Positions 234 through 45,649 of a stretch of 64,000 nucleotides of DNA are shown here, piece by piece. Within the stretch, counting starts at the first letter, position 1, and the number at the start of each line of letters is the position of its first letter. The position numbers were made by a program, and so were the translations under genes. Under the pieces are notes generated by a model, which was not told the origin of the DNA, did no database searches, and saw only the letters and a program-made list of their open reading frames with translations. The stretch lies in the NCBI RefSeq assembly GCF_024298765.1, contig NZ_CP101210.1; one strand, given 5' to 3'. This stretch comes from Escherichia coli. Lineage in GTDB: Bacteria > Pseudomonadota > Gammaproteobacteria > Enterobacterales > Enterobacteriaceae.

Positions 234-919
234 ATAACCAGTATTTACAGTTTGTGCGTGAGCAGCTCATTATCGCCACCGCTGATTTGAGTGGGGCAAC
301 AAAAGGTCAGCTTGAAGCCTGGCAGGAGAATGCCATGTTCGATACAGGGCGTTACAGGCGAAAAAAAATCCGGTACCGCGATGAAGTGACTGGAAAAATG
401 ATAACGCGGGATAATCCACCAATCCCGGGAAAACAATCACTGGCGAATGGCTCATCAATTGCCCTGGTCAGCCCGGTTGAGTTTTCGACATCATCATGGC
501 GGCGGGCTTTGCTGTCTCTTGAAGAGCATCATAAAGCCTGGTTGTTGTGGTGTTACGGCGAGAGTATTTGTTGGGAATATCAGATCGCGATAACACAGTG
601 GGCGTGGAATGAATTTAATACTCAATCCGGTACCAGAAAAATTGCAGGGAAAACGCAGGAACGCCTGAAAAAATTAATCTGGCTGGCGGCGCAGGCAGTA
701 AAAGCAGAACTTTTTGGTGGGGAAGGTTATGAATACCAGGAGCTGGCATTACTGGCGGGAGTGACAACTAAAAACTGGTCCAAAACATTTACTCGTCACT
801 GGGTTGCAATGAAACACATTTTTCAACGACTGGATAGTGAGGCTTTATTGTTTGTAATGAGAACACGTTCAAAACAAAAGGCGGCATTTTCAAAGCAAAG
901 TGTTGCAAAAGTAGATTGA
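224..919 (+). CDS. Putative late-gene antiterminator (Q-like), 231 aa
   Basis: Positional: immediately downstream of rusA and upstream of a promoter plus short-transcript terminator; sequence family not recognised, no Cys4 zinc finger seen. Confidence 0.4.
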   Translation: MRMNNQYLQFVREQLIIATADLSGATKGQLEAWQENAMFDTGRYRRKKIRYRDEVTGKMITRDNPPIPGKQSLANGSSIALVSPVEFSTSSWRRALLSLEEHHKAWLLWCYGESICWEYQIAITQWAWNEFNTQSGTRKIAGKTQERLKKLIWLAAQAVKAELFGGEGYEYQELALLAGVTTKNWSKTFTRHWVAMKHIFQRLDSEALLFVMRTRSKQKAAFSKQSVAKVD

Positions 920-931
920 AAGGCATATATT
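903..931 (+). promoter_or_regulatory. Candidate sigma70 late promoter (pR-prime-like): -35 TTGCAA, 17-bp spacer, -10 TATATT
   Basis: Hexamers read directly; located at 3' end of Q-like ORF, about 55-80 nt upstream of a terminator. Confidence 0.4.
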
Positions 932-983
932 TCATGCAAATCTGATATTTTGCCGATTTTGTACGTGATGGCAAAAGCAAACA

Positions 984-1010
984 AAACCCGCCCACAAGCG
1001 GGTTTTTTTG
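984..1010 (+). terminator. Rho-independent terminator (tR-prime-like)
   Basis: Stem AAACCCGC / GCGGGTTT with 6-nt loop followed by T7 run. Confidence 0.6.
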
Positions 1011-1091
1011 TGCCACTTATCTCGGATAGACATGGTGAATGCGCTGGTGGAGGAGCTAAGGGTGATTTTTAACCAGGTGATTTTTGAATGC

Positions 1092-1120
1092 TTGCAACAT
1101 TGATTTCGTAACGTTATTAT
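1092..1120 (+). promoter_or_regulatory. Candidate sigma70 promoter for tRNA array: -35 TTGCAA, 17-bp spacer, -10 TATTAT
   Basis: Near-consensus hexamers ending 10 nt upstream of first tRNA 5' end. Confidence 0.45.
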
Positions 1121-1129
1121 CCTGCGCCC

Positions 1130-1205
1130 GGCCCTTTAGCTCAGTGGTGAGAGCGAGCGACTCATAATCGCCAGGTCGCTGGTTCAAATCCAGCAAGGGC
1201 CACCA
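1130..1205 (+). tRNA. tRNA with anticodon CAU (ileX/ileZ-like; Ile2-lysidine or Met)
   Basis: 76 nt, cloverleaf with CTCATAA anticodon loop, GGTTCAAATCC T-arm, CCA end; close to E. coli ileX from memory. Confidence 0.8.
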
Positions 1206-1206
1206 A

Positions 1207-1283
1207 CCGTCACCAGTTCATCAGGAAAGAGCGTCAACCCTTTAAGTTGAGTGTGCGAGGTTCGAGTCCCCGGTGGCGGTCCA
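1207..1283 (+). tRNA. tRNA-like gene, non-canonical (anticodon loop CCTTTAA, possibly UUU/Lys; C33 instead of U33)
   Basis: Acceptor stem with one G-U, T-arm GTTCGAGTCC with one A-C mismatch, CCA end; may be a degenerate or pseudo tRNA. Confidence 0.4.
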
Positions 1284-1285
1284 GT

Positions 1286-1361
<76 letters not shown>

Positions 1362-1364
1362 TAT

Positions 1365-1439
<75 letters not shown>

Positions 1440-1445
1440 GTTAGA

Positions 1446-1491
1446 GTCTTTCAGTCTGCGATGATGGGAAATCCCGGAGTGACTGAAAGAC
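1446..1491. repeat. Perfect 11-bp inverted repeat (GTCTTTCAGTC ... GACTGAAAGAC) with 24-nt loop containing GGGAAATCCC
   Basis: Read directly from sequence. Confidence 0.7.
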
Positions 1492-1498
1492 GTTTAAG

Positions 1499-1571
1499 TT
1501 ATGAATGATCGCTTTTTTTTGCAAAATTGCTGTGCAGAAATACTAACCTTCGGGCAGGCGATCATTCATAA
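1499..1571. repeat. Perfect 14-bp inverted repeat (TTATGAATGATCGC ... GCGATCATTCATAA) separated by 45 nt; T8 run follows the left arm
   Basis: Read directly from sequence. Confidence 0.7.
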
Positions 1572-1646
1572 GCACTCTGCTTTTATTCCGATTAACTGTG
1601 GGTGGTTTGTTGGATAGAGTGCTTTCCTTACTGTATATATTGTTTC

Positions 1647-1672
1647 GCCCGCTTTTGCGGGCTTTTCTTTTC
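1647..1672 (+). terminator. Rho-independent terminator upstream of holin gene
   Basis: GCCCGC-TTTT-GCGGGC hairpin followed by TTTTCTTTTC. Confidence 0.55.
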
Positions 1673-1731
1673 AAATCCCTTTCATTTCTCAGTGTAAAAC
1701 TACGCCATCCGTTATTTGCGGAGGTGAGGCT

Positions 1732-1947
1732 ATGAAATCCATGGACAAAATTTCAACGGGCATTGCCTATGGCACCTCCGCAGGCAGTGCTGGCTACTGG
1801 TTTTTACAGTGGCTTGATCAGGTCAGTCCGTCACAGTGGGCTGCGATTGGTGTACTGGGGAGTCTGGTTCTGGGCTTCCTGACTTATCTGACAAATCTGT
1901 ACTTCAAAATCAGAGAAGACAAGCGTAAGGCTGCACGGGGAGAGTAA
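1732..1947 (+). CDS. Phage 21-type pinholin S21 (71 aa, dual-start motif MKSM)
   Basis: Translation matches S21 pinholin as recalled; strong RBS GGAGGTGAGG; first gene of lysis cassette. Confidence 0.9.
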
Positions 1948-1951
1948 TTCA

Positions 1952-2302
1952 ATGACTCAAAACTATGAACTGATTGTGAAAGGGATCCGCAATTTTGAGA
2001 ATAAAGTTACGGTAACTTTAGCGTTACGGGACAAAAAACGCTTTGACGGTGAAATTTTTGACCTGGACATCTCGCTGGACCGTGTTGAAGGTGCCGCGCT
2101 GGGGTTTTATGAGGCAGCAGCCAGAAGGAGCATCAGACAGGTCTTCCTGGATGTTGCTGCCGGGTTATGTGAAGGGGATGAGCAGTCGCCGGAAAAGCGC
2201 CCCGTAATTTTAGAGGCGCAGAATGTGTGGATAACCTACAAAGGAAAGCTACCAGGAAGAATTACTGGTTCTCTGAAGACTCCTCCGGAATCACAACCTT
2301 AA
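1952..2302 (+). CDS. Hypothetical protein (116 aa) inserted between holin and endolysin
   Basis: ATG with RBS GGGGAGAG 8 nt upstream; no family recognised. Confidence 0.55.
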   Translation: MTQNYELIVKGIRNFENKVTVTLALRDKKRFDGEIFDLDISLDRVEGAALGFYEAAARRSIRQVFLDVAAGLCEGDEQSPEKRPVILEAQNVWITYKGKLPGRITGSLKTPPESQP

Positions 2303-2899: not shown

Positions 2900-3363
2900 G
2901 CAGAGTCGCCGCGATTATTTATGCTCTGGTTATCTGCATCATCGTCTGCCTGTCGTGGGCGGTCAATCATTACCGTGATAACGCCATCACCTACAAAGAA
3001 CAGCGTGATAAAAAAGTCAGTGAGCTGAAGCAGCTGACCGCCACCATCGCTGACATGCAGCAGCGTCAGCGTGATGTTGCTGCGCTCGATGCAAAGTACT
3101 CGAGAGAATTAGCCAATGCGAAAGCTGAAAATGAAACTCTGCGCGCTGATGTTGCCGCTGGTCGTAAGCGCCTGCGGGTCAATGCCAGTTGCTCCGCAGC
3201 CGTGCGTGAAGCCACCGGACCCACCAGCGTGGATAATGCAACCAGCCCCAGACTGGCAGACACCGCTGAACGGGATTATTTCACCCTCAGAGAACGGTTG
3301 ATGACGATGCAGAAGCAACTGGAAGGGGCACAGCTATACATTCGTGAGCAATGTCTCAGATAA
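2896..3363 (+). CDS. Spanin, inner-membrane subunit Rz (GTG start assumed)
   Basis: Strong similarity to lambda Rz as recalled; N-terminal TM helix then coiled coil. Confidence 0.85.
3116..3301 (+). CDS. Spanin, outer-membrane lipoprotein subunit Rz1 (embedded in Rz, +1 frame)
   Basis: Lipobox LVVSAC, proline-rich body, similar to lambda Rz1. Confidence 0.85.
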
Positions 3364-26814: not shown

Positions 26815-27395
26815 TGGCATTCAGAATGAGTGAACAACCACGGACCATAAAAATTTATAATCTGCTGGTCGGAACTAATGAATTTATTGGTGAAGGTGAC
26901 GCATATATTCCGCCTCATACAGGTCTGCCAGCAAACAGTACCGATATTGCACCACCAGATATTCCTGCTGGCTTTGTGGCTGTTTTCAACAGTGATGAGG
27001 CATCGTGGCATCTCGTTGAAGACCATCGGGGTAAAACGGTTTATGACGTGGCTTCCGGCGACGCGTTATTTATTTCTGAACTCGGTCCGTTACCGGAAAA
27101 TGTTACCTGGTTGTCGCCGGGAGGGGAATATCAGAAGTGGAACGGCACAGCCTGGGTGAAAGATGCAGAAGCAGAAAAACTGTTCCGGATCCGGGAGGCG
27201 GAAGAAACAAAAAACAGCCTGATGCAGGTAGCCAGTGAGCATATTGCGCCGCTTCAGGATGCTGCAGATCTGGAAATTGCAACGGAGGAAGAAACCTCGT
27301 TGCTGGAAGCCTGGAAAAAGTATCGGGTGTTGCTGAACCGTGTTGATACATCAACTGCACCGGATATTGAATGGCCAGTAGCACCTATAGGGTAA
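26814..27395 (+). CDS. tfa: Tail fibre assembly protein Tfa
   Basis: Positional immediately after stf; size 193 aa. Confidence 0.85.
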
Positions 27396-37135: not shown

Positions 37136-37235
37136 ATAAAAAAGCCGGCATCATGCCGGCCCAAAAAATATAAACAAGACGATAAAAGGCTAATAACGGA
37201 GGCATCATGACACAGAAAAATAAAAAGGTATAATT
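37136..37235 (-). ncRNA. Candidate small RNA in yedS-yedR intergenic region (possibly RseX)
   Basis: Minus-strand hairpin GCCGGCATGATGCCGGC followed by TTTTT; CCUCC anti-SD-like stretch upstream; RseX location recalled, sequence not verified. Confidence 0.3.
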
Positions 37236-42857: not shown

Positions 42858-45382
<2,525 letters not shown>

Positions 45383-45562: not shown

Positions 45563-45649
45563 AACACATCAGATTTCCTGGTGTAACGAATTTTTTAAGT
45601 GCTTCTTGCTTAAGCAAGTTTCATCCCGACCCCCTCAGGGTCGGGATTT
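45563..45649 (+). ncRNA. dsrA: DsrA small regulatory RNA
   Basis: Sequence AACACATCAGATTTCCTGGTGTAACG...CCCGACCCCCTCAGGGTCGGGATTT matches DsrA as recalled, including terminator. Confidence 0.9.

Follow-up and report, generated by a model that had tools for sequence, protein, structure and literature searches.

The 292-nt stretch at positions 1440–1731 of the analysed window (64,000 nt of Escherichia coli contig NZ_CP101210.1) lies between the tRNA array and the holin gene of a lambdoid prophage, and was found to contain a conserved structured RNA, the helices of which are backed by compensatory substitutions beyond those of the controls. The conserved unit is not the whole stretch but a module of ~125 nt (positions 1499–1624), here designated M, made up of two domains, HP2 and HP3; an optional first hairpin, HP1, precedes it. 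As read from the sequence, a conserved RNA structure with invariant segments is thereby placed on the + strand between a tRNA array with a conserved promoter-like sequence and, in most contexts, a terminator. We propose, at a probability of roughly one half, that positions 1440–1672 form the 3' trailer of a tRNA operon of the prophage; this trailer would yield a stable structured small RNA and shield the lysis genes from read-through. The elements are as follows:

HP1, 1446–1491, + strand: 11-bp stem 1446–1456/1481–1491; inner G·U and C-G pairs at 1458–59/1479–80; mini-stem 1465–68/1473–76
HP2, 5' domain of M, 1499–1571, + strand: outer stem 1499–1514/1556–1571
P2a, inner hairpin of HP2, 1516–1523/1533–1540, + strand: loop AAAUUGCUG (1524–1532)
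Small hairpin of HP2, 1547–1554, + strand: CC-UUCG-GG
HP3, 3' domain of M, 1570–1624, + strand: outer stem 1570/72–1579 with 1615–1622/24
P3b, helix of HP3, 1587–1591/1610–1614, + strand
P3c, helix of HP3, 1594–1597/1604–1607, + strand: apical loop GUGGGU (1598–1603)
Invariant strand of HP3, 1600–1613, + strand: GGGUGGUUUGUUGG
Linker, 1625–1646, + strand: A/U-rich and unstructured (unpaired probability >0.8), its sequence differing between lineages

The original prediction, made from the letters of this DNA, started from two perfect inverted repeats, and direct reading together with a repeat search located both exactly where it had put them. The first pairs 1446–1456 (GTCTTTCAGTC) with 1481–1491 (GACTGAAAGAC) over 11 nt across a 24-nt gap; the second pairs 1499–1512 (TTATGAATGATCGC) with 1558–1571 (GCGATCATTCATAA) over 14 nt across a 45-nt spacer that opens with a T8 run (1513–1520). 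Both are 100% complementary, and the search also returned a third helix (1570–1578/1616–1624). Arms of this length had been called unlikely by chance. In 2000 dinucleotide-preserving shuffles of 1440–1731, scored for the longest perfect inverted repeat with a gap of 3–60, repeats of at least 11 nt arose in 0.15% and repeats of at least 14 nt in none (0/2000), while the real region has both. The + strand RNA of 1440–1680 folds at -83.1 kcal/mol (z = -5.7), a value equalled in 0/200 shuffles, as compared with -65 kcal/mol for the - strand. The mini-palindrome said to lie within the first repeat (GGGAAATCCC) exists as a mini-stem of 3–4 bp (GGG/CCC) with a variable loop, but it is no true palindrome.

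Relatives of the region were collected from several sources. It was present in 529–535 of 5426 complete E. coli genomes (~10%), mostly at >95% identity, and was annotated in none; the copy of E. coli 042, at 1637631–1637922 of NZ_CP042934.2, is 100% identical to the window stretch, APEC O1 has the identical locus too, and the carriers include ST131, APEC and EAEC strains. The phage collection contributed four near-identical E. coli phages and the distant HK639 (77% identity), in which M lies, unannotated, at 44572–44711, and Fels-1 of Salmonella carries HP1 and HP2 fragments. Pattern scans of IMG/VR, seeded with HP2 and with HP3, added well over 100 further loci, which were sorted with a covariance model of M (R1) built from 29 distinct sequences; loci are referred to below by L numbers. 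When one genome per species was scanned with GGGTGGTTTGTTGGNNNRGTGC, only two chance matches emerged, in metagenome-assembled genomes of Kapaibacterium and Elusimicrobiales, neither of which was recognised by model R1.

A covariance analysis across related prophages had been proposed as the test of a structured RNA, and its outcome was favourable. In the comparison of the window with HK639, each of the three stems already shows compensatory changes, and G·U pairs occur as well. Across the 29 distinct sequences, the 41 predicted pairs of M were paired in 96.3% of cells, versus 32–50% when the 3' partners were slid. Compensatory double changes occurred at 9 pairs (53 cells), a result matched by 0/500 shuffles; the sequences fall into a few lineages, and the independent events are fewer than the cells counted. 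The outer stem of HP2 accounts for 4 pairs with compensatory changes, and this stem is retained in L185 and L143, where another sequence takes the place of the HP2 interior. At least 9 sequence versions of the HP3 outer stem were found, every one of which pairs, including GCACUCU/AGAGUGC, GCAUCUC/GAGGUGC, GCACCCC/GGGGUGC, GCACAUUAC/GUAGUGUGC and GCAUGCACA/UGUGCAUGC. With 148 G·U cells in M, pairing is 96.3% when read on the + strand and drops to 84.8% on the - strand, which indicates that the M RNA is encoded on the + strand, like the tRNAs and late genes. The structured-RNA reading of the original prediction is thus borne out, the + strand stems having been kept by compensatory and G·U changes in divergent lambdoid phages. 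This unit extends to 1624. Its third hairpin, which covaries strongly and contains an invariant strand rich in G and U, had gone unnoticed, as had the optional nature of HP1 and the promoter of the tRNA array (see below).

The HP3 strand GGGUGGUUUGUUGG is essentially invariant, even among loci retrieved via the HP2 16-mer alone. Similarly, GGGTGGTTTGTTGG is nearly invariant in loci fetched through another part of M and is also retained in stand-alone HP3 modules with entirely different closing stems. The HP3 core can be written as UCCGAY-U-AACY-NGGGU-GGUU-U-GUUGGR, enclosed by a freely covarying stem. The two domains also occur separately: HP2 is found without HP3 in Fels-1, L016, L024 and L076, and HP3 without HP2 in L139, L157, L161, L164, L174, L177 and L181. 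HP3 behaves as a mobile RNA module. It is possible, though we put this forward only tentatively, that M, and above all the HP3 core, represents a mobile RNA module of phages that has not been described before and has a sequence-specific partner. In one form of this reading, M could be a constitutive trans regulator, made from a prophage tRNA promoter in about 1 in 10 E. coli strains, which could reprogram host mRNAs or small RNAs (sRNAs) through its G/U-rich face, by analogy with the reading of C/A-rich sites by GcvB. Alternatively, it could be the site recognised by a protein, of the host or the phage, that controls the expression of late or lysis genes.

Some of the HP3-only copies, which have neither HP2 nor tRNAs, stand 10–13 nt before a small gene starting MKV(F/Y)IAGPMTN, and others precede a 221–254-aa (amino acid) gene that itself precedes the holin gene; in L181, a terminator separates the lone HP3 from the holin gene that comes immediately after. 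Two resemblances to known signals were rejected. The 5' strand of HP3 matches boxA/nut at ~8 of 13 positions, but these positions covary as a helix, and a Chi-like reading of GTGGGTGG fails at two core positions, which differ from the Chi sequence GCTGGTGG.

HP1 is supported by covariation too. In an alignment of 22 distinct versions, 96% of cells were paired, versus 40–49% in slid controls, and 3 pairs showed compensatory changes, with numerous G·U pairs. It is present in many lineages and missing where M adjoins the CCA end of tRNA-Gly directly. The interior of HP1 (GAUGAUG-(C)GGG...CCCG) appears to resemble the variable loop and T-arm, i.e. the 3' half, of the neighbouring tRNA-Gly, and HP1 may be a tRNA-derived relic. 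In HK639, tRNA-Gly(UCC) is reduced to its 3' half, which matches the window copy exactly and lies directly before HP1 (L001 2912–2995), and ARAGORN calls no tRNA there; from its sequence, this half gene looks to be a recombination or deletion scar at the tRNA/trailer junction.

The genes and signals on either side of HP1 and M are:

Sigma-70 promoter of the tRNA operon (predicted), 1092–1120, + strand: TTGCAA, 17 nt, TATTAT, then a G+C-rich stretch, the first tRNA starting at 1130
tRNA array, four tRNA-type genes, 1130–1439, + strand: tRNA(CAT) (Ile in RefSeq), an aberrant gene at 1207–1283, tRNA-Thr(TGT) and tRNA-Gly(TCC), by ARAGORN
Intrinsic terminator, 1647–1672, + strand: GCCCGC-UUUU-GCGGGC (1647–1662) followed by UUUUCUUUUC
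Holin leader, 1673–1731, + strand: Shine-Dalgarno sequence GGAGGTGA at 1720–1727

In most of 32 loci, M was located downstream of, and on the same strand as, an array of Met(CAT), an odd tRNA, Thr or Arg, and Gly(UCC). In the window, tRNA-Gly ends at 1439 and HP1 starts at 1446, and in 8 lineages M starts right after the CCA of tRNA-Gly. The Rfam tRNA scores in the array are 72.5, 73 and 51.4 bits, and the RefSeq annotation is that of the identical E. coli 042 locus. Immediately before tRNA-Met(CAT), TTGCNN and TATCAT or TATTAT, set 17 nt apart and followed by a G+C-rich stretch, are kept in 18 of 19 divergent loci, L020 being the exception; the sequence further upstream is unrelated. Since the hexamers are kept while the upstream flanks diverge, the tRNA array appears to own a predicted sigma-70 promoter apart from pR', the late promoter. 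This conserved predicted promoter implies that the tRNAs and the trailer may be expressed without Q or induction.

The second gene of the array (1207–1283) is tRNA-like but aberrant: its acceptor, D and T arms are highly conserved, in contrast to a hypervariable anticodon loop that in many cases has too few nucleotides. ARAGORN assigns it variously to Lys(ttt), Phe(aaa/gaa), Leu(taa) or 'Stop'(tta), or leaves it undetermined. It is rejected by the Rfam tRNA model and has no RefSeq annotation in E. coli 042. A gene of this kind also occupies the second slot in L016, L037, L054, L055, L077, L079 and L095.

The terminator at 1647–1672 is present as predicted, with the DNA following its hairpin (GCCCGC-TTTT-GCGGGC, 1647–1662) reading TTTTCTTTTC. 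It does not lie directly before the ribosome-binding site of the holin gene, as had been stated, but 48 nt separate its U-tract from the Shine-Dalgarno sequence GGAGGTGA. By a strict rule, 47 of 72 distinct contexts have a terminator within ~10–25 nt 3' of M or HP3; at least 6 unrelated terminator sequences are in use, and the first lysis gene usually starts ~60–100 nt past the terminator. The 3' arm of the terminator seen in the window is polymorphic among near-identical prophages (GCGGGC, GCGGGT, GCGGTT and GCGTTT; e.g. L028, L038 and L041); from GCGGGC to GCGTTT the stem becomes progressively weaker and the T run longer.

The holins next to M belong to at least 5 families, and the upstream Q proteins differ too. 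Because the neighbouring Q and holin proteins are of several families, M travels with the tRNA array rather than with a protein gene. A riboregulator of lysis, as had been suggested, is not supported in that form: the element is tied to the tRNA array and to no holin family, the terminators that follow it are unrelated between lineages, and in HK639 ~450 nt, which include an STnc100 homolog and two more terminators, separate M from the holin gene.

The stretch had also been said to contain no open reading frame (ORF), which holds in that none is credible or conserved; mechanical ORFs of 27–45 aa do exist, and one on the - strand is annotated as 'hypothetical protein' in two phage records. In the alignments, a + strand candidate of 38 aa (1501–1617) is shortened to a few codons in HK639. 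A - strand candidate of 43 aa, judged from the same kind of reading, is probably unconservable because its start falls in the lineage-specific terminator.

No family in Rfam 15 accounts for the element. A permissive cmscan of positions 850–2000 against Rfam 15 (E up to 10) gave no match within 1440–1646, including none to AgvB (RF02702), AsxR (RF02703), Esr41 (RF02676), STnc100 (RF02076), rtT, GcvB or C4/IsrK. Weak chance-level matches (RyhB, anti-hemB, CRISPR repeat and STnc540) fell only on the terminator and holin leader (1625–1731). At gathering score, the whole window contained only tRNAs, IS009, DsrA and rseX. Full-text literature searches returned no description of the conserved strings or of the element.

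The interval between Q and holin in lambdoid phages is known to encode prophage sRNAs, including PasA/C/D of enteropathogenic E. coli, AgvB and AsxR of enterohaemorrhagic E. coli, STnc100 of Fels-1 and StxS/IsrK-type RNAs (PMC4104026, PMC8550237, bioRxiv 10.64898/2026.05.13.724894). Like M, the sRNAs of this pR'/moron region are small and non-coding, end in intrinsic terminators and are confined to the accessory genome. The Pas RNAs (PasA/PasC and PasD1/D2) occupy the same position, from the Q or esterase gene to the holin-lysozyme genes, but the analogy is positional only, and PasA is on the opposite strand; the anti-sRNAs differ in being 51–60 nt long. Homology to PasA, PasC and PasD1 of strain E2348/69 was rejected, since blastn (word size 7) with window positions 900–1960 aligned the holin coding sequence only and model R1 finds nothing in the three loci. 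Model R1 also had no match in the DLP12 late region of K-12, which we take to be the location of IpeX.

STnc100 lies right after M and the terminator in HK639 and beside the HP1 and HP2 fragments in Fels-1. Its homologs in late leaders are at 3254–3459 of L001 (HK639) and at 1273–1486, 1687–1809 and 2810–3028 of L130 (Fels-1), the late leader of Fels-1 holding all three of these copies plus the fragments. 'ORFs' with NPPERRG and REAPGT, seen 3' of M in many IMG/VR loci, are probably spurious translations of STnc100 RNA. The Rfam scan detected no STnc100 in the window itself.

Parallels in arrangement are offered by RNAs cut from stable-RNA operons of the host. 3'ETS-leuZ is a sponge RNA cut from the glyW-cysT-leuZ tRNA operon of E. 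coli, and rtT RNA derives from the tyrT operon. The sRNAs rrA, rrB and rrF are cut from the ends of rRNA operons (PMC8144298). Each of these RNAs extends from directly 3' of the last stable-RNA gene, on the same strand, to the intrinsic terminator of the operon and needs no promoter of its own, as would be the case for the M trailer. The window likewise has the trailer directly 3' of the last tRNA on the same strand, a predicted promoter before the array, from which the two are presumably co-transcribed, and an intrinsic terminator with a U-tail at 1647–1672. The M trailer shares no sequence or structure similarity with these RNAs (no Rfam rtT match with E up to 10) and, unlike them, is phage-borne and far more structured, and it also serves as the late-operon leader. 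Small RNAs are also encoded with the tRNA cluster of phage T4, where species 1 and 2 (rnaC/rnaD) are stable RNAs of unknown function processed from the cluster transcript; T4 is an unrelated virulent phage, and no homology is expected.

Under the trailer proposal, the element would act as follows. In a lysogen, the predicted tRNA promoter would transcribe the tRNAs, HP1 and M, and polymerase would stop at 1647–1672, the terminator keeping non-Q-modified transcription out of the lethal holin-endolysin genes. Processing of the tRNA 3' end would free the trailer as a discrete RNA of ~180–230 nt, guarded at its 5' end by the long terminal stems and at its 3' end by the terminator hairpin, a release similar to that of 3'ETS-leuZ and rtT in host tRNA operons and of rrA/rrB/rrF in rRNA operons. 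The freed RNA may act through sequence-specific contacts made by the HP3 core (GGGUGGUUUGUUGG), with its GGG apical loop, and by the HP2 loop (AAAUUGCUG); it could bind either a protein, with Hfq and ProQ as candidates, or an RNA rich in C and A. In the lytic phase, polymerase that started at pR' and was modified by Q would read through, and the same hairpins would become the processed 5' end of the late (lysis) transcript. The discrete RNA, its stability and any trans activity are inferences.

Several observations weigh against this proposal. i) Some M or HP3 copies have no upstream tRNA (L012, L039, L101, L118 and L181), and in L139, L161 and L164 M or HP3 forms a 5' leader directly before genes; these copies fit a role in cis at least as well as one in trans. 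ii) About one third of the downstream contexts are without a strict terminator, and some E. coli alleles have weakened terminator stems (GCGGTT and GCGTTT). iii) In the predicted fold, most of the conserved G/U-rich segment is base-paired, and conservation coincides with exposure only in GGGU and the HP2 loop, which is unusual for a seed. iv) In a target search, the complement of the G/U-rich strand had no other site within the window. The complement of the HP2 loop had 5 sites in the window as against ~1 expected (2/100 shuffles reach 5), a count that we do not regard as interpretable.

The main rival is that the element works purely in cis, in processing, stability and insulation where the tRNA array gives way to the late mRNA, and has no trans function. 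Its hairpins would impede 3' exonucleases or provide RNase III/E cleavage sites for the maturation of the tRNAs, and would give the lysis transcript a protective 5' hairpin and, together with the terminator, insulate the holin gene. The elements always occur in the untranslated late leader before lysis genes, the HP2 stem begins 0–4 nt from the tRNA CCA end in several lineages, and the HP3-only copies are 5' leaders 10–100 nt before genes. Furthermore, the long irregular helices of ~17–22 bp resemble RNase III substrates such as the sites of T7 and lambda. A stabiliser or RNase III site needs shape only, but here the partner strands and closing stems vary around a nearly invariant GGGUGGUUUGUUGG and HP2 loop; HP1 is dispensable and the interior of HP2 replaceable. 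On balance we consider a purely cis role rather doubtful.

A cis-acting processive antiterminator like put of HK022, in which nascent RNA would bind polymerase and allow it to read through the terminators before the lysis genes, is improbable. Like the put RNAs of HK022 and HK639, M consists of two adjacent stem-loop domains with one to four terminators downstream; it occurs in HK639, a phage using put-like RNA, and the annotated putL-like RNA of HK639 is 126 nt, a size similar to that of M. However, put RNAs are located just 3' of PL or PR and M instead 3' of Q and pR', and HP2 and HP3 are also found separately. Model R1, run with filters off on the whole of HK022 and HK639, found the late-leader copy of HK639 only, being silent at the putL-like and M3-like RNAs of HK639 and throughout HK022. 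Moreover, the late operon already has Q (PF06323), and antitermination from a constitutive tRNA promoter would express holin in lysogens, which would be lethal.

Even less probable is a riboswitch or attenuator leader of the lysis genes, in which M would sense a ligand or factor and decide whether the 1647–1672 terminator forms. A structured conserved domain, a terminator and a gene within ~60 nt do make a riboswitch-like layout, one that recurs before several holin families. Yet the linker and terminator sequences are unrelated between lineages while M is constant, which makes a conserved alternative pairing between M and the terminator implausible; the STnc100 homolog and two further terminators stand between M and the holin gene in HK639, and Q-modified polymerase disregards such intrinsic terminators. 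Finally, a DNA-level element (a protein-binding palindrome, as had also been suggested, or a recombination site) or a set of functionless decaying tRNA relics is scarcely credible, in spite of the perfect arms in the window, the position at a mosaic boundary, and the likeness of HP1 to the 3' half of tRNA-Gly, just half of which HK639 keeps beside HP1, since G·U pairs are tolerated on the + strand only, the arms are 24–45 nt apart, compensatory changes recur in several independent lineages and M is a conserved island between unalignable flanks.

The start of the window is the late-regulatory region of a lambdoid prophage, and the remaining features around the element are:

RusA, 3' end, 9–233
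Antiterminator Q, 224–919: PF06323
pR'-like promoter, 903–931, and tR' hairpin, 980–1009
Holin, phage 21 S type with dual start MKSM, 1732–1947, + strand: Pfam PF04971, E = 1.4e-35
DUF1327/YdfR gene, 3' of the holin gene
Lysozyme-family endolysin, 3' of the DUF1327/YdfR gene: PF00959
Rz, 3' of the endolysin gene

The hydrophobic N-terminus of the endolysin, read by eye, suggests that it is of the signal-anchor-release type. The moron slot 3' of pR' is the position of stx in Shiga toxin-encoding phages (PMC4104026), in agreement with the placement of the stretch at the stx locus by the original prediction. The short pR'-tR' transcript (903–1012) is the positional equivalent of lambda 6S, StxS and IsrK-type RNAs and has sub-threshold Rfam matches to isrJ (24.5 bits) and isrK (22.7 bits). 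A perfect 10-bp inverted repeat (1717–1726/1773–1782) pairs the Shine-Dalgarno region of the holin gene (TGCGGAGGTG) with holin codons ~14–17; together with the dual start MKSM, this looks like translational control of the holin/antiholin ratio. Elsewhere in the window, the Rfam matches at gathering score are IS009 at 27157–27355 (226 bits) and rseX and DsrA at 37137–37226 (- strand) and 45563–45649. Because rseX and DsrA are core-genome sRNAs, the second half of the window is probably chromosomal and not prophage.

In pathogenic E. coli, prophage sRNAs such as AgvB, AsxR, the Pas RNAs and StxS rewire the regulation of the host, and the M element looks like a further, so far unannotated family of prophage late-leader RNAs; its covariation support is comparatively good for such an RNA. 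Its architecture, a structured RNA riding on a phage tRNA operon, is unusual, and since that operon has its own stringent-type predicted promoter, the trailer should be abundant in lysogens without induction. In the lambdoid late leader, non-coding modules that each terminate themselves appear to be strung together: the pR'-tR' RNA, the tRNAs, M and, in some phages such as HK639 and Fels-1, STnc100. Jointly they would insulate the lysis cassette. If M functions in trans, the carriage of rare-codon tRNAs would be linked to host regulation; if it acts only in cis, it would be a new signal by which late transcripts of phages are processed and stabilised.

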